A DNA stretch of 25,943 bases from an archaeon (GTDB lineage: Archaea > Asgardarchaeota > Thorarchaeia > Thorarchaeales > Thorarchaeaceae), in the NCBI GenBank assembly GCA_024275415.1, contig JAJRZD010000040.1, positions 1-25,943 of the forward strand. The letters are read 5' to 3'. This document shows, piece by piece, positions 7,521 through 21,730 of the stretch. Numbering within the stretch: the stretch's first letter is position 1; each line of letters opens with the position of its first letter. A program made the position numbers and the translations under genes. The notes below the pieces were generated by a model. The model searched no databases. It had not been told where the DNA came from and was given only the letters and a program-made list of their open reading frames with translations.

Positions 7521-9446
7521 CTATCGCAGTTTGATGGTTTCTGTGACGGAAAGTGCCTTCGTGTCAATGTTCATAGATTTATGAATAGTAGATGCCAGAT
7601 TGATGCACTTGGAAGCCTCACCGTGGCATGTCAATACTTTTTCAGGAATAGGGTTGACTCTCTTGATGAAGTTCAGAATCTGTTTTCTATCAGAGTGACC
7701 AGAAAAGCCCTCAACCGTTTCAACTTGGAGGTTGACTGGGATAATCTGTTTCTGGCCTTCTCGGTTTCTCATCTGTGCTTCTTTCCAACCCTTTTGGATT
7801 CTTCTACCGAGTGTGCCTTCACCTTGATATGATACAAAGCAAACGGTGTTCTTCGAGTCAGGAGCAAGCAGACGGAAATAGTCCACACTGGGGCCACCAG
7901 CAAGCATCCCAGACGTTGCCATTATTATGGCAGGCTCCCCTTCGATAATCTCCTCACGCTGCTCAGGATTGTCCACTTGCACGAAGATGTCATTCAAGAA
8001 GGGGTTGACACCCTGATGAAATATCATTTCTCGTATCTTCTTGCTAAGTGCTTCTGGGTGTGTGGTATGGATGGCGGTCGCTTGAGCGATCATTCCCTCC
8101 AGATAGACTGGTATTCGGGGAATCCTTCCTTTGGACACCAAGTCTTCGATTACCAACATAATCTCTTGTGCTCGTCCCACAGCCAGCACGGGGATGAGAA
8201 CTTTTCCTCCACGTTCAATAGTCCGCTTTACTACAGATGCGAATCTCTTCTCGACCTCTTGCCGGGGTGGCATTTTATCAGTCGGATGGCCATATGTGCT
8301 TTCAACAATGAGGGTTTCAAGCCTCGGAAACGTGAATGTCGCAGGTTCAAGCAGCCGTGTCCGACCAAACTTGAAGTCGCCTGTATATGCCAGATTATAT
8401 TGACCGTCTCCAATGTGAAGATGAATGATTGCAGACCCAAGGATATGACCTGCATTATGGAGGGTGAGACGCACATCTGGGGCTATATCTGTGACTTCTC
8501 CATAGTTGAGTGGTATTGTGTGAATGATAGCCTCCTTCACATCGCGCTCTCGATATGGTCGAAGCTTGCCTTCCCGTTCGGCAACCTCGAGATAATCCAG
8601 CTGCAAGAGGGTGGCAAGGTTGAGTGTGGGCGCTGTCATATATACAGGCCCTCTGTAGCCGTACTTGTATAGGAATGGTACCATTCCGCAATGGTCAAGA
8701 TGGGCATGTGTGATAATGACCGCATCTAGTTGTTCGATATTGAACTCGGGCATGTCCAACCTTGGAAACGCCTTGCTAGGGGTGCCAACATTGACACCAC
8801 AGTCAATCAGGATGTTAGTTTCAGGCGTTTGCAGAAACATAGACTGTCTTCCGACTTCCTTGAACCCACCAAAGGCTACAAGTCGAATCCACCCGTTCTC
8901 TATCATTGCCCTGCGATGGATTCGTCGTCCAATCTCGCGAAATGCCCGATTTCTCTTTGCTGCCTCAGATTGGATAATATGTCGAATCTGCTTTATGAGA
9001 AGGCTTTCGATTGGTGGTGTCCTCATCACATTTGGGCGCCAGAGGGTCTGACGAGTTATCTCCCTAAGGGTCGTGCCACTCCGACCAATGACCAGTCCGG
9101 GTTTTTGAGCCTCGATAATGACTTCGCCTCTCGAATCGTCAAAGTCGATGCTAGTGATAGTCGCATCCTCGGGGACTAGCTCCTTCACGAGTCGTTCTGT
9201 TTCATCATGAGGAAGTCGCACTTCTGGAGAGGATCTGACAACGATTCTTTTTCTCATCTTTCGTGCAAGAGCCTTGATCTTATCCCCGTCATCTAGAAGG
9301 ATCTTGGGTGCTTTTGAGTAAATTGCAATCTCAGGTCCTTCATACTCCACTGAGCTAATCGAAGCAGATCGAGGAAGAGCAGCCTTGACTATATCTCGAA
9401 TGTCCATGTTATTATCATCGTAATTGTTAGAAGCCATACTAGTCAC
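7521..9446 (-). CDS. fttA: Beta-CASP ribonuclease aCPSF1 / transcription termination factor FttA (2 KH domains + MBL + beta-CASP)
   Basis: VEYEGPEIAIY, KH motif KPGLVIGRSG, GGFKEVGR, HAHLDHCG, AGHILGS, YTGD, ESTYG, FSGHSD, CHGE; adjacent to psmB. The start could be 9446, 9437 or slightly downstream. Confidence 0.95.
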   Translation of the reverse strand: MTSMASNNYDDNNMDIRDIVKAALPRSASISSVEYEGPEIAIYSKAPKILLDDGDKIKALARKMRKRIVVRSSPEVRLPHDETERLVKELVPEDATITSIDFDDSRGEVIIEAQKPGLVIGRSGTTLREITRQTLWRPNVMRTPPIESLLIKQIRHIIQSEAAKRNRAFREIGRRIHRRAMIENGWIRLVAFGGFKEVGRQSMFLQTPETNILIDCGVNVGTPSKAFPRLDMPEFNIEQLDAVIITHAHLDHCGMVPFLYKYGYRGPVYMTAPTLNLATLLQLDYLEVAEREGKLRPYRERDVKEAIIHTIPLNYGEVTDIAPDVRLTLHNAGHILGSAIIHLHIGDGQYNLAYTGDFKFGRTRLLEPATFTFPRLETLIVESTYGHPTDKMPPRQEVEKRFASVVKRTIERGGKVLIPVLAVGRAQEIMLVIEDLVSKGRIPRIPVYLEGMIAQATAIHTTHPEALSKKIREMIFHQGVNPFLNDIFVQVDNPEQREEIIEGEPAIIMATSGMLAGGPSVDYFRLLAPDSKNTVCFVSYQGEGTLGRRIQKGWKEAQMRNREGQKQIIPVNLQVETVEGFSGHSDRKQILNFIKRVNPIPEKVLTCHGEASKCINLASTIHKSMNIDTKALSVTETIKLR

Positions 9447-14189: not shown

Positions 14190-15536
14190 TTATGAATGGA
14201 CAGCTGTAACATTCAGTTCGACACACTTGCATTCTGTTCCAAGCATCTCTGTTAAAGAGGGTGATGTCCTCCCATCGTCTCCGGATATGAGTTCCTTGAC
14301 ATACGTCCCTCCTTGAACTTTGAAAAATCCATCAACGGTATGTGCATCCTTCTTCACCAACCTCACTTCAAACACTTGTTTTTTTCTGACAAGGTCACTC
14401 CTCCTATGTGACACTCGGTGGGGCGTTCTTTGATCCAAAGTAGCTCCTGTCAGCCGCTCCATCGCTTCTTGCAGTGTGACAGCGCTCACTTCGCCAGAGA
14501 TGTGAATCAACGCCCTGTATTCTTTGACGGTTTCTGAAGCGCTTGTCTTTAGTGATTGCAATTTCTTCCGGGTCGTCAACTCAAGACTGTGCACCTTTAT
14601 TTTGCCATGAGCATGAGAGTTTATGGTGCGGGTCAGGACTTCAAAGTCAGGATGACGAGTCCGTGGCTTTGTAATCTCCACAACAAAAGGGCGCCCGTTC
14701 CCCAGCATAAGCACATCAACATCTTCTCTCCCAGCGGCATGGAACTTGAATCTGGTGCCCTTTAGTGCCTCTTGGATAGGGATTGAGATATATTCTGAGA
14801 TGGAGTCCGGATAGTTTCTACCGGTTCCACCACACTCCCCACAGCCCTTTCCTTTGCAAATCTTGCAGTCCCATCGGCTCTGAGGAATGCCACGAACAAG
14901 CTTGCAATACCTCCCGTATATGAACACGGGATTGCTACGTATCTCAACACGGTCATTTTTCATATCATAGAAGATGACAATATCGGGTCGTTCAAAATTC
15001 ACTGTCCAATCCATCTTATCGGAGAGTTGTTTGCCTAGCTCACGATTGAAGTCTGATTTCAGGGTTTCTGCATGGACAAGCCCGAACTTCCCCTGTATTT
15101 CCTCGTTCAACTCCTCAAGGGATTTTACCATTGATGAGCCGACAAGGAATGTGTCGAATTCGTATCCCTTTGACTCAATGATTGCTCTCTCGACAATCAA
15201 GGGAATCCCCTCAAAAATGCTCAAGTCACCATGTGCACATAACTGGCATCGTTCTTTATGTTCGATGTCCGAGCCGTACTTTTTGCACAATGTGACTGCC
15301 GGAGAGAACATCCCATTCCGAGCTAGGTCTTGCAGGATCGCAAGGCCTCGTTCCTTCTCGCCCATCTTGTACATCTGGTCGGCAATCATAGATATCGCAA
15401 GTTTGAGGGAATAGCCTCTGGATTCGTTCGTTGAATTAGTGCTCAGCCATGCAAATTGTCGTCCCAAACACCTGTTACAAATAGCGAACTGCTCCACGAG
15501 CCCAATTGCTTTCTCTAACAGCTGTGGAGATCTCAT
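14190..15536 (-). CDS. pus10: tRNA pseudouridine(54/55) synthase Pus10
   Basis: N-terminal CxxC (CNRCLGRQF), YGRYCKLVRGIPQSRW, catalytic FHAAGREDVDV, GNGRPF, GGTYVKELISGD.GRT.PS. Confidence 0.95.
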   Translation of the reverse strand: MRSPQLLEKAIGLVEQFAICNRCLGRQFAWLSTNSTNESRGYSLKLAISMIADQMYKMGEKERGLAILQDLARNGMFSPAVTLCKKYGSDIEHKERCQLCAHGDLSIFEGIPLIVERAIIESKGYEFDTFLVGSSMVKSLEELNEEIQGKFGLVHAETLKSDFNRELGKQLSDKMDWTVNFERPDIVIFYDMKNDRVEIRSNPVFIYGRYCKLVRGIPQSRWDCKICKGKGCGECGGTGRNYPDSISEYISIPIQEALKGTRFKFHAAGREDVDVLMLGNGRPFVVEITKPRTRHPDFEVLTRTINSHAHGKIKVHSLELTTRKKLQSLKTSASETVKEYRALIHISGEVSAVTLQEAMERLTGATLDQRTPHRVSHRRSDLVRKKQVFEVRLVKKDAHTVDGFFKVQGGTYVKELISGDDGRTSPSLTEMLGTECKCVELNVTAVHS

Positions 15537-16882: not shown

Positions 16883-17254
16883 ATGGTACTCAAGAAACAG
16901 TTCCCGTATAAACAGGTGATAGCCGTGAGGACGGACTTGAGGATGAGCAAGGGCAAAATAGCCGTTCAAGTCGCTCATGGGGCTGTGAGTGCTGCTGAGA
17001 AAGCAAGAGTGAGTAATCAAGATGTCTGGCGTTCATGGCTACGGGAAGGACAGAAGAAGGTCGCTGTCAAGGTTTACTCAGAGGAAGAACTCCTTCAACT
17101 GATGCGAAAAGCTGTAATCCACAGGTTGCCATATTCTCTTATCCGCGATGCAGGGATGACTGAACTCCCTCCCGGCACCATGACGGTCATCGGGATAGGC
17201 CCTGCAAAATCAGAAGAAGTGGACAAGGTAACCGCAGACCTCAAACTTCTGTGA
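16883..17254 (+). CDS. pth2: Peptidyl-tRNA hydrolase Pth2
   Basis: YKQVIAVRTDLRMSKGKIAVQVAH, GQKKVAVK, DAGMTELPPGTMTVIGIGP, VDKVTADLKLL. Confidence 0.96.
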   Translation: MVLKKQFPYKQVIAVRTDLRMSKGKIAVQVAHGAVSAAEKARVSNQDVWRSWLREGQKKVAVKVYSEEELLQLMRKAVIHRLPYSLIRDAGMTELPPGTMTVIGIGPAKSEEVDKVTADLKLL

Positions 17255-17265
17255 GAGGGCTTTCT

Positions 17266-18615
17266 ATGAGGAGTACCCACCCATTAGAAATTGCCATCGG
17301 TATGGAATTCTACAGCACCTCATTTCAGGGCGTTGGGGGGAGAATAAAGAGGCGCTATGAGGATTTCGTAGTAGAAGAGATCGATTCCTCTCAGTCTGTC
17401 ATCGCTGCAGACATCCCCCTTGAAGAACCATGTGTTCCTACGAATTTTGTTGTGCGTGGGGTTTCAAGAAAAGCTAGGAACATCCATTTCAAGATGCAAA
17501 AGATGGGACTGACAACATTGGACGCTGTAAGCCTGCTTGCATCATCATTAGGATTATCTCGCCATCTGGTCACCTATGCAGGGCTCAAGGATAGACGAGC
17601 GCTGACCGCCCAGAGGATATCAGTCCCAAAATCAGCCCTGGACAATCTACGAAGGCTTAACCTTTCTCGGATTTGGATCAGAGATTTCACATACTCTCGA
17701 AGACCTATTAATGTTGGAGACCTCTGGGGAAATAGATTCTCGATACTAGTAAGGGAAATCGAGACTCCCTGCGAGAGGGCACTTTCAAACCTTCTACGTT
17801 TACAAGACCATCATCTGATGAACTATTTCGGTATCCAACGATTCGGGGTTTCCCGGCCATTCAGCCATCATGTAGGCAAAGCGGTCATCAAAGGCGACTT
17901 TGAGGATGCCATTCATTTCATCCTGTTTGCTCCCAGCGAGTACGAACTCGGGCCAGCTGCGGACATCCGTATGCGTATCCGAGAAGAAGGCTTATCCGAC
18001 ACTCTTGTTGAGAAATTGCCACAGGACATGAGATACGAACGTGCCATTGCCAAGAGCCTGCTACAGCACCCCAATAATTACCAATTGGCTTTTTCCAAAA
18101 TCCCTCCCCGTATCCAGACGCTATTCATTCATGCATACCAGTCATATCTATTCAATCGTATCCTGAGCTTGCGTTTCAAGGAAGGTGTGTCAATCAGCGA
18201 GCCTGAGCCAGGTGATTTTCTCATTAGGCTCGACCAGACTCACACTGGCAGGGATGATTGGCTGTTCGTGACTGAGAAGAACCTTTCATCGCTCCAAGAG
18301 ATTGTGCAGGCTGGGGAATATGGCATTGCAGGTATCATCCCTGGATATGCATCAAAACTCCCGAATTCCCGCCCAATAGATATTGTACGCAGGGTTCTCA
18401 ATGAAGAGGAAATATCACTCCAAGAATTCAGGAACGCGGAAAACTCTCACCTTGATTCTGCAGGTAGTCTACACCTACTGTCATACAGAATTCCAGATAT
18501 CACAGGAAGTTGTTCTGAGGACGGACTGAGGGCACAGTTCGATCTAAGAAAGGGATCTTATGCAACAGTCGTGCTGAGAGAGCTGATGAAGAACAGCCCA
18601 TTGAACCGAGCATGA
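17266..18615 (+). CDS. truD: tRNA pseudouridine(13) synthase TruD; ATG 17266 preferred over GTG 17251
   Basis: GGRIKRRYEDFVVEE, catalytic YAGLKD, GDLWGNRF, NYFGIQRFG, HAYQSYLFN, FDLRKGSYATVVLRE. Confidence 0.95.
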   Translation: MRSTHPLEIAIGMEFYSTSFQGVGGRIKRRYEDFVVEEIDSSQSVIAADIPLEEPCVPTNFVVRGVSRKARNIHFKMQKMGLTTLDAVSLLASSLGLSRHLVTYAGLKDRRALTAQRISVPKSALDNLRRLNLSRIWIRDFTYSRRPINVGDLWGNRFSILVREIETPCERALSNLLRLQDHHLMNYFGIQRFGVSRPFSHHVGKAVIKGDFEDAIHFILFAPSEYELGPAADIRMRIREEGLSDTLVEKLPQDMRYERAIAKSLLQHPNNYQLAFSKIPPRIQTLFIHAYQSYLFNRILSLRFKEGVSISEPEPGDFLIRLDQTHTGRDDWLFVTEKNLSSLQEIVQAGEYGIAGIIPGYASKLPNSRPIDIVRRVLNEEEISLQEFRNAENSHLDSAGSLHLLSYRIPDITGSCSEDGLRAQFDLRKGSYATVVLRELMKNSPLNRA

Positions 18616-19272: not shown

Positions 19273-19584
19273 CTACCTCTCAAGGGTGATGTCTATCGTG
19301 GATACATTGAGGTCGCTGCCCTTGTCAGTCTGGACGGTTGTGGTACCTATTTGAATGTCCTTGACCTTCACATCCTCAAGGAACCTATGACGTGTAATCT
19401 CTGCAACATCTACAGCTCGACTAATCAGCCGACCTCTAGCTCGTATCAGCACCTCTTTTGCGCCCTTGTTGAAGAGTGTAACGCATGCTAATACATAGCT
19501 CATGACGTTTTTGGAACCAACGAGTATCGTTGAGTCTCCGTGATCATCGCTATCTTTGGTAACCTCTTGATTTTCCTCCGCCAC
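19273..19584 (-). CDS. alba: DNA/RNA-binding protein Alba
   Basis: [40 protein letters not shown]. Confidence 0.95.
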
Positions 19585-19759: not shown

Positions 19760-21028
19760 ATGGCACAACTAACTTGTCTTGGCTCTTGCCGCGAAATAGG
19801 CAAATCAGCCTTTTACCTTGAGGAGCGCAATGAAAGTATCCTTGTAGATTATGGAACCAAATTCACCAACCCACCAAGCTTTCCAGATATGGTTCCCATT
19901 GATAATATGCAGGCGATAGCAATCACACACGCTCATCTCGACCATTCAGGCGGCATACCACGATTGTTAGCTGAAGATGATAATTTGTCACTCTTCTGTA
20001 CGCCTGCAACTAGAGACCTTTGTATCCCATTAATCCGTGATATGTATGAGATTTCGGGCGGACGGATGCCATTCACCAGGAGAGACATCTCCAGAATCAA
20101 AAGACAGACACAGCCAACCGCCTATGAGGAAACGATACCCCTTGGACACAGCTTTGAAATGACGCTCTTCAATGCAGGCCATATCCCAGGCAGCGCGATG
20201 GTGTCTATTCGTTATGATAGCAAGAGGGTCTTGTTCACTGGCGACTTCAATGCGATCACATCCAGACTCAATAATGGCGCTCGTATCAATCTCCCAAAAC
20301 ACGATGTGGTGGTCACCGAAAGCACGTATGCACGACGATTGAACCCCGATCGCGAAGAGATTGAGCAAGCATTGATACAGACAGTTCTCGAAACCGTGGA
20401 ACGTGGAGGTATAGCGCTTATTCCAGCCTTTGCAGTCGGACGTAGCCAAGAGGTGATGTGTATTCTTGAAGAGTATGGCATCCCTTCAAAGTACCCTATC
20501 TATGTGGATGGCATGGCTCGCACAGTCAACAAGGTCGTTGTCAAACATCCTAACTACATCAGCTCGCCTCATGCTTTCGAACGAGCTGTGAAACGTGCAA
20601 GAGTCATATACAACCGACAAGATCGTGCTAATGCGCTGAAAAGACCCGGCATAATCATCTCTCCTGCAGGCATGTTGAAAGGAGGCGCATCGCATTTCTA
20701 TTTCAAAATGCTCTATGGGGATGAGAAGAATAGTATAGTCCTTGTGAGCTTTCAAATCCCAGGCACCCCAGGTGCAGAACTGCTGGCAAAAAGACGAGTG
20801 ACTGTTGGTAATAGAGAATATGCAGTTCAAGCTGATGTAAGATATCACCATCTCAGCAGCCACTCCGATTCAAGAGGGCTTATGCAAATGCTTCAAAGCA
20901 TACCTGGAAACCCAGAGTTTTTCCTCGTCCACGGTGAGAGCGAATCATGTGACGCACTGGGAGCCAAACTGGAGAAAAAGGGCAAAAAAGTGACAATCCC
21001 TGAAACAAACGATTCATTCGAGGTATGA
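19760..21028 (+). CDS. Short beta-CASP metallo-beta-lactamase ribonuclease without KH domains (aCPSF2/aCPSF1b-like)
   Basis: GSCREIGKS, HAHLDHSG, AGHIPGS, FTGD, ESTY, PAFAVGRSQE, AGMLKGG, SSHSD, VHGE. Confidence 0.9.
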   Translation: MAQLTCLGSCREIGKSAFYLEERNESILVDYGTKFTNPPSFPDMVPIDNMQAIAITHAHLDHSGGIPRLLAEDDNLSLFCTPATRDLCIPLIRDMYEISGGRMPFTRRDISRIKRQTQPTAYEETIPLGHSFEMTLFNAGHIPGSAMVSIRYDSKRVLFTGDFNAITSRLNNGARINLPKHDVVVTESTYARRLNPDREEIEQALIQTVLETVERGGIALIPAFAVGRSQEVMCILEEYGIPSKYPIYVDGMARTVNKVVVKHPNYISSPHAFERAVKRARVIYNRQDRANALKRPGIIISPAGMLKGGASHFYFKMLYGDEKNSIVLVSFQIPGTPGAELLAKRRVTVGNREYAVQADVRYHHLSSHSDSRGLMQMLQSIPGNPEFFLVHGESESCDALGAKLEKKGKKVTIPETNDSFEV

Positions 21029-21122: not shown

Positions 21123-21338
21123 TCATTCCTCTTCCACTTGGGGCCTAGCCTCGACCACAGTGCATTTCACTTGAGAGAGAACCTCTTCTGCTTTCTGGGG
21201 TTCCAAAATGAGTGTGTAGAGATATCGGGATGTGCGAAGTTTGAGCTTCACTTGGTCTGCACTCCTCTTGACTCGACATTCCACTGCATCCTCGGTCATT
21301 CCAAGGAACTTCTCGACATCATAGATCTGTTTTGGCAT
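21123..21338 (-). CDS. rpl38e: 50S ribosomal protein L38e (true start 21338; the ORF-track extension to 21488 runs through the tRNA)
   Basis: MPKQIYDVEKFL...ECRVKR....VKLKLRTSRYLYTL; residue 51 of the track ORF is the Met at 21338. Confidence 0.93.
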   Translation of the reverse strand: MPKQIYDVEKFLGMTEDAVECRVKRSADQVKLKLRTSRYLYTLILEPQKAEEVLSQVKCTVVEARPQVEEE

Positions 21339-21365
21339 CGGTTTTTGCCCCTGTGTTTTTTGTAG

Positions 21366-21472
21366 TGGTGGGCCGGGGGAGGCTCGAATTCGGGTCACAT
21401 GGAGCGTGTCCAAGTAATCTCCCGACCTTCGCCGTGTGAAGGCGACGTCATAGCCGACTAGACCACCGGCCC
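21366..21472 (-). tRNA. tRNA-Val(CAC) with encoded CCA and a 30-nt intron at position 53/54
   Basis: Minus strand: acceptor GGGCCGG/CCGGCCC-A-CCA; D arm GTCTAGTCGGCTATGAC; anticodon arm TCGCC-TTCACAC-GGCGA; variable loop AGGTC; T stem GGGAG/CTCCC; T loop TTCGAGC restored after removing 21389-21418. Confidence 0.93.
21389..21418 (-). other. Archaeal tRNA intron with a bulge-helix-bulge-like (relaxed) motif
   Basis: Intron ATTACTTGGACACGCTCCATGTGACCCGAA. Central helix CGGG/CCCG (4 WC pairs), bulges AG|A and AA|T, intron hairpin TTACTTGGA/TCCATGTGA. Confidence 0.88.
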
Positions 21473-21504
21473 ATATGATATCAGCCATGACAGTAGTAGG
21501 TCAA

Positions 21505-21660
21505 TTACCTCTTTCTTCTATTTGGCCTGAGGTCCTTGTTCTTGCACTTTCTGCACTTCTTGGCGGCAACAGGGTTTGTTGCACCGCATGTGCGGCATAT
21601 AGACTTGTATAGCAAGTAGTGCTGTGCGAGTCGTCGTTTCTCTATATCAGCAACTGGCAT
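21505..21660 (-). CDS. rpl40e: 50S ribosomal protein L40e (51 aa, absent from the ORF track)
   Basis: Manual translation: MPVADIEKRRLAQHYLLYKSICRTCGATNPVAAKKCRKCKNKDLRPNRRKR*, with the CxxC...CxxC and LRP signature. A second in-frame ATG lies at 21663. Confidence 0.95.
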   Translation of the reverse strand: MPVADIEKRRLAQHYLLYKSICRTCGATNPVAAKKCRKCKNKDLRPNRRKR

Positions 21661-21730
21661 CATTAGAACCTCGTCTAATTCGAATGGTGGACCATCCTTC
21701 GTCCACTTTCACGCCAACCGACATACTATG

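Follow-up and report, generated by a model that had tools for sequence, protein, structure and literature searches.

Non-canonical BHB introns in tRNA genes were reportedly described in Crenarchaeota and Thermoproteales by Marck and Grosjean in 2003 and by Sugahara in 2008. Position 53/54 is among the known non-canonical intron positions and HBh' is among the known motifs (Yoshihisa 2014 review, PMC4090602). In Asgard archaea, an (αβ)2 EndA with an L1 loop is found together with disrupted tRNA genes, including in one Thorarchaeota genome (Kaneta et al., PMC5829648). Cleavage of both non-canonical and relaxed motifs has been shown for such EndA enzymes (PMC3241643, PMC5829648), and the loop-less M. 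kandleri EndA also cuts HBh' (PMC5829648). In other Asgard classes, 92–95% of the tRNA genes contain introns (PMC11291895). Repeated intron gain has been reported for BHB-competent sites, the T-arm introns having for the most part been detected by tRNAscan-SE (bioRxiv 10.64898/2026.10.13.758758). Here, we describe a T-arm-interrupted tRNA-Val(CAC) gene with an HBh' motif in a window of 25,943 nt (the whole stretch of DNA that was analysed). This is very probably a functional tRNA-Val(CAC) gene of Thorarchaeota (Asgard) with one protein-spliced 30-nt BHB intron between positions 53 and 54.

The gene occupies the minus strand from 21472 to 21366, encodes its own CCA (21368–21366) and has its T arm split by a 30-nt insert. 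Exon 1 (21419–21472; 54 nt, positions 1–53) supplies the acceptor 5' strand, the D arm, the anticodon arm with CAC, the variable loop and the T-stem 5' strand GGGAG. Its RNA reads GGGCCGG UG GUCU AGUCGGCUA UGAC G UCGCC UUCACAC GGCGA AGGUC GGGAG, and the DNA at its end reads GGTC-GGGAG. The intron (21389–21418) lies between G53 and U54, as placed by the sequence and the BHB scan. Exon 2 (21366–21388) contains the T loop TTCGAGC, the T-stem 3' strand CTCCC, the acceptor 3' strand CCGGCCC, A73 and CCA (RNA: UUCGAGC CUCCC CCGGCCC A CCA). The predicted exon–exon joint is GGGAG-UUCGAGCC (GGGAG-UUCGAGC). The junction register is unique. The base that precedes one junction is never the same as the base that follows the other, so any shift of the register alters the mature sequence.

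Run over 21250–21600 with lax filters, the Rfam tRNA model RF00005 matched 21369–21472 from end to end (45.5 bits, E 9.5e-9; gathering score 29), and its alignment placed the excess bases in the T loop as a large insertion. Over the whole window, neither ARAGORN nor a default Rfam scan called a tRNA. ARAGORN in intron mode on the whole genome did not recover tRNA-Val(CAC) and mis-placed many introns. A genome-wide RF00005 search lost the gene at its initial filter. Once the insert was cut out in silico, ARAGORN called a tRNA-Val(cac) of 77 nt, in which the acceptor stem has 7 bp, the anticodon and T stems have 5 bp each, the T loop is UUCGAGC and A73 precedes the encoded CCA. An encoded CCA is common to all intron-less tRNA genes of the genome. 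On our own scoring this cloverleaf is near-perfect (31/32). An earlier note, made from the sequence alone, had identified the gene as tRNA-Val(CAC), had placed a 30-nt insert at 21389–21418 between the T stem GGGAG and the loop TTCGAGC and had warned that standard callers may miss it. The identity and the boundaries were reproduced.

We searched the precursor with a BHB scanner that looks for a 4-bp helix (H) with both strands ending 2 bases before the cuts, a pair of 3-nt bulges and one or more flanking helices. Eleven BHB-like candidates were found, and a proper cloverleaf (31/32) came only from the 53/54 candidate. Here, the exon strand of H (C48 G49 G50 G51, 21421–21424) pairs at all four positions with the intron strand CCCG (21391–21394), and the two strands covary in relatives. 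The 5' bulge A52 G53/A (21418–21420) and the 3' bulge A A/U54 (21388–21390) each have their predicted cut after the second base. They lie on opposite strands, each 3' of its helix strand, with the 4-bp helix between them, and removal of the intron at these predicted sites gives a canonical tRNA. The intron forms a hairpin (21395–21417; UUAC-U-UGGA, loop CACGC, UCCA-U-GUGA) that folds at −6.1 kcal/mol on its own; its inner helix h' consists of 4 bp (UUAC/GUGA), a U·U mismatch and a further 4 bp (UGGA/UCCA) that close the 5-nt loop. On the exon side no outer helix h forms (0 bp), and U47 faces U55. As the inner helix h' is present and the outer helix h is absent, the motif is of class HBh'. The centroid structure that RNAfold gives for the precursor shows H with the 5' bulge and the hairpin, along with the acceptor stem and the anticodon arm. 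When the insert was shuffled, 8 of 20,000 sequences gave, at the true boundaries, a fully paired H (4/4) together with no fewer than 4 inner pairs. The relaxed motif that the earlier note had proposed, with a CGGG/CCCG helix, bulges AG/A and AA/T, no exon-side helix and an intron that forms its own hairpin, was reproduced by the BHB scan.

We searched 87 Thorarchaeia species genomes for tRNA-Val(CAC) with an insert at 53/54, using the reversed pattern as a control. The pattern was found in 5 of the 87 genomes, and the control gave 0 matches. The source genome (G000), G001 and G004 belong to the same genus, G020 to a second genus and G051 (SMTZ1-45) to a third; one further variant, L150, was picked up among metagenome contigs. 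The six introns measure 29–32 nt, and their hairpin sequences are barely alignable. Each nevertheless has an inner helix of 4–9 contiguous pairs, and H is paired at 4/4 positions in five of the six (3/4 in G051). Shuffled inserts matched the H and hairpin of the six introns in 2–50 of 20,000 trials. A compensatory double change was observed in G020, where a T stem GCGUG is accompanied by the intron strand CGCG, versus GGGAG with CCCG in the source genome (CGGG/CCCG to CGCG/CGCG). These data bear on whether the insert arose as an artefact during assembly or binning of the MAG, which consists of 127 contigs with 4.5% estimated contamination. Such an artefact has a close to negligible probability in our view, as four further genomes at species level, and independent metagenome contigs too, show the same architecture at the same locus with different intron sequences.

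A wider pattern for 53/54 introns, applied at the level of the genus, retrieved 17 tRNA 3' halves and 0 control matches. Introns at 53/54 are found in at least seven tRNAs, namely Val(CAC), Thr(CGT), Thr(GGT), Gly(CCC), Gly(GCC), Leu(CAA) and Ala(CGC). In every resolved 53/54 case, the 3' tetranucleotide of the intron complements positions 48–51 (CGGG/CCCG, CGCG/CGCG and CCCG/CGGG). On sequence comparison, this complementarity is the signature expected of a motif under selection for splicing. Separately, tRNA-Gly(GCC) in G004 (L163), G003 (L165) and G001 (L160) has two introns five bases apart, one on either side of CCGGG, the 5' strand of the T stem. They share the ending GGTCGGGAA, which looks as though one had been copied from the other, and the tRNA-Gly(GCC) of the source genome has no intron.

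The BHB and the T stem are mutually exclusive, because H occupies G49–G51. For three relatives (G001, G004 and L150), the fold of minimum energy retains the T stem and has the intron hairpin inside an enlarged loop. As these folds favour the T stem over the BHB helix, the BHB is probably one of two competing folds between which the modelled precursor switches. The same three folds could also be taken to mean that the 30 nt are never excised and that the mature RNA carries them as an additional hairpin within a larger T loop. We consider this very improbable. A T loop of 37 nt would break the conserved interaction between the T loop and the D loop, and the covariation of the intron 3' tetranucleotide with positions 48–51 is nothing that such a fold needs. 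Moreover, orthologues that lack the insert or carry inserts at other places are nearly identical in the rest of their sequence, and the genome encodes the splicing enzymes.

The gene lies between two ribosomal protein genes, all three on the minus strand. The gene rpl40e (21505–21663; 52 aa, Pfam PF01020) ends 32 nt upstream of the tRNA, and rpl38e (21123–21338; 71 aa, Pfam PF01781, E 1.9e-13) begins 27 nt downstream of it. The mechanical ORF at 21123–21488 crosses the tRNA. The true start of L38e is at 21338, where Met-Pro is found and where M1 and P2 are invariant across 19 orthologues, so that the mis-extension of rpl38e pointed out in the earlier note is borne out. Relatives of the L38e protein are almost all labelled Candidatus Thorarchaeota. 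The order rpl40e–tRNA–rpl38e is kept in 22 related loci. No T-run was found 3' of the tRNA, and no conserved TATA-like box was found in the 20–40 nt between rpl40e and the tRNA. As the spacers are tight and these two elements are missing from the flanks, the arrangement suggests that the tRNA is co-transcribed with rpl40e and rpl38e and then cut from the transcript. We also searched RNA sequence data. A 3-kb query returned 0 runs, and a 601-base query returned 18 runs with only 4–5% of the sampled words. Four RNA runs yielded three contigs that share 35–41 bases of the conserved exon 1 or rpl38e before continuing into unrelated sequence. These contigs come from other organisms; they contain no joints, do not cover the intron and have no bearing on expression.

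Other Thorarchaeota have, between rpl40e and rpl38e, Val(CAC) genes that lack introns or are interrupted differently, and the tRNA-Val(CAC) described here is their orthologue by position. We surveyed this locus by motif-free alignment of 57 distinct resolved Thorarchaeota genes, which gives positions that are good to about 3 nt. Fourteen genes have no insert and about 22 have one in the anticodon loop. The 53/54 insert is found in four genes besides the source gene, T-loop inserts at 55–60, alone or with a second insert, in about 12, inserts in the region 42–47 in about eight and D-arm inserts in three. Some of the Val(CAC) genes next to rpl38e (loci L032–L060 and L064–L136) hold two or three inserts. 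Even within the genus, Val(CAC) has a 53/54 intron in G000, G001 and G004, a 37/38 intron in G002 and G006 and none in G005. With at least six intron regions plus intron-less genes among relatives, the locus provides a natural series for the study of intron gain and loss.

We then determined which other tRNA genes of the source genome, a MAG of 92.9% completeness, are interrupted. A scan for a 7-bp acceptor stem followed by N-CCA, with BHB introns removed, resolved about 36 tRNA genes; it is an incomplete census, in which several Leu, Pro and Met genes were mis-solved. Introns at 53/54 were also found in tRNA-Thr(CGT) (C123:35853-35957), with an HBh' motif, and in tRNA-Gly(CCC) (C43:40922-41026), where both flanking helices are present. 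Further non-canonical introns are located at 44/45 in tRNA-Val(UAC) (C117:34941-35048), at 10/11 (Glu), 22/23 (Tyr) and 59/60 (Phe, Asp, Ile) and in the D loop of two Arg genes and one Pro-like gene. Canonical 37/38 introns are likewise present, and most introns in the scan are 28–33 nt long. The earlier note had proposed a survey of intron positions across Asgard tRNAs. This was carried out at the scale of the Thorarchaeia and of the genus, and it found many non-canonical introns.

The valine tRNAs found by the scan are a single Val(CAC), which is the gene described here, together with Val(GAC) and Val(UAC). An intron-less Val(CAC) elsewhere, which the earlier note had named as a sign of a pseudogene or integration scar, was not found by this partial census of the 92.9%-complete genome, nor was any second copy. 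The tRNA-Val(UAC) could in principle wobble-read GUG, so that the Val(CAC) gene need not be essential. This, together with the blank calls of ARAGORN and the default Rfam scan, lends something to the view that the gene is a pseudogene, or that its T arm bears a scar of integration or recombination, with GUG being read by another tRNA; the T arms of tRNAs are common integration sites. We give this view very little credence. The exons are intact, with a cloverleaf of 31/32, and the exact BHB boundaries are kept, with compensatory change, in five other genomes or contigs. The locus is also syntenic with functional-looking orthologues, no integrase or repeat adjoins the gene, and the genome holds no other Val(CAC) that we could find. 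The gene is also of consequence for annotation, as no other tRNA found in the genome reads GUG directly and its sequence is swallowed by an over-long rpl38e ORF.

Position 53/54 could be a hot spot in the genus, with one intron lineage spreading between tRNA genes by recombination via near-identical T arms and acceptor 3' strands, in which case the Val(CAC) intron would be of the same lineage as the 53/54 intron of Ala(CGC) in a sister species. We regard this scenario as unlikely on the present evidence. The tRNA-Ala(CGC) of G003 (L159, region of G003:C14:11597-11625) has a 53/54 intron that shares 22 of 32 bases with the Val(CAC) intron of G004 (L157). Its unusual T loop, TTCGAGC, is that of the Val(CAC) gene in the source genome, where Ala(CGC) is intron-less and has a different T arm. 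This hints that a block of T arm plus intron may have moved between Ala and Val tRNA genes. The alignment score of the Val and Ala introns is 7, which is borderline as it equals the null maximum of 7, and its significance is overstated by a null that ignores hairpin symmetry. The 53/54 introns of Thr(CGT) in G006 (L155) and Thr(GGT) in G003 (L170) score 15 versus a maximum of 7 for the same null, which ignores hairpin symmetry. By their sequences, the introns of these two Thr genes from two sister species appear clearly homologous. If true, the spread of an intron lineage from a hot spot would show a specific way in which Asgard archaea gain tRNA introns, a matter that is reported to be still open (bioRxiv 10.64898/2026.10.13.758758).

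Two EndA paralogues are encoded in the genome, a catalytic one with Tyr-His-Lys and a structural one that lacks the His. The α subunit (190 aa, C69:17528-18100) has a Y128/H136/K167 triad and aligns over its full length with the catalytic subunit of Aeropyrum pernix (3P1Z_B, 1e-43). It contains a crenarchaeal-type specificity loop (CSL/L1), IRKPKSPEF, that is absent from the β subunit (213 aa, C117:29289-29930), in which Thr occupies the His position and the nine-residue loop is missing. K45 of the α subunit aligns with APE K44, which was shown to confer broad specificity on A. pernix EndA (PMC3241643). The Thorarchaeota pair thus resembles A. pernix EndA (PDB 3P1Z; PMC3241643) in its catalytic His, its CSL lysine and its separate β subunit without His, and differs from it in that the second basic loop residue is Lys (K47) instead of Arg46. 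From the homology to 3P1Z, we infer that the EndA of this genome forms an α2β2 heterotetramer able to cut relaxed motifs. The broad-specificity endonuclease that the earlier note had expected a relaxed motif to need thus has its counterpart in an α2β2-type EndA pair with a CSL/L1 loop, and a gene for the RtcB ligase is present as well. Three clustered tRNA genes lie some 1.3 kb from the gene of the β subunit (G000:C117:27095-29930); they are Tyr with two introns, Arg TCG and Arg CCT with one intron.

With these enzymes, maturation of tRNA-Val(CAC) could proceed as follows. In the precursor, C48–G51 would pair with CCCG of the intron in place of the T stem, giving the 4-bp helix, the two 3-nt bulges and the hairpin. 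EndA would bind this BHB conformer and cut after G53 and after the last A of the intron, leaving a 2',3'-cyclic phosphate and a 5'-OH, and RtcB would join the exons. The T stem (G49–G53/C61–C65) would form once the exons are joined, and the T arm would then be modified. It is a reasonable inference that modification of the T loop, by Pus10 (pseudouridine 54/55) and others, follows splicing. As the earlier note had said, pus10 is in the window, where Pfam places it on the minus strand at 14190–15536 (Pus10_C, E 6.9e-68, plus the Pus10 THUMP domain); a gene for TruD is found at 17251–18615. Pus10 and TruD are housekeeping enzymes in archaea, and nothing connects either gene with the tRNA. As Pus10 is a housekeeping enzyme, the distance of about 6 kb between pus10 and the tRNA is no evidence of a link. 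The window as a whole is rich in genes that handle RNA, with an FttA/aCPSF1-like β-CASP nuclease with KH domains, Pus10, TruD, Alba and a second β-CASP nuclease at 7521–9446, 14190–15536, 17251–18615, 19273–19584 and 19760–21028.

As position 53/54, the HBh' motif, the (αβ)2 EndA of Asgard archaea and the heavy interruption of Asgard tRNA genes have all been published, the Val(CAC) intron is of a known type. It is a well-supported example of that type, which is common in this genome, and it involves no new mechanism. The intron is also less unusual than the earlier note implied, because position 53/54 had been published (PMC4090602) and because such introns abound in this genome and in its relatives. 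In their main text, the Asgard tRNA-intron papers were not found to describe this tRNA gene or the spread of intron positions at the rpl40e–tRNAVal–rpl38e locus. Its value is that of a clean example of a T-arm (53/54) HBh' intron in Thorarchaeota that is backed by covariation. Like the introns of Crenarchaeota and Thermoproteales, it combines position 53/54, an HBh' motif with a 4-bp helix and 3-nt bulges and a short hairpin intron with presumed reliance on an α2β2 EndA with a specificity loop and with rapid turnover of positions among relatives. Unlike those introns, it is hosted by an Asgard archaeon (Thorarchaeota) rather than by TACK, in a gene set tightly between two ribosomal protein genes. 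With the published Asgard tRNA introns it shares the Asgard host, the many non-canonical and T-arm introns, the BHB at the boundaries, the repeated gains at orthologous loci and the (αβ)2 EndA with an L1 loop, whereas that published work concerns other classes or one other Thorarchaeota genome (SMTZ1-83).
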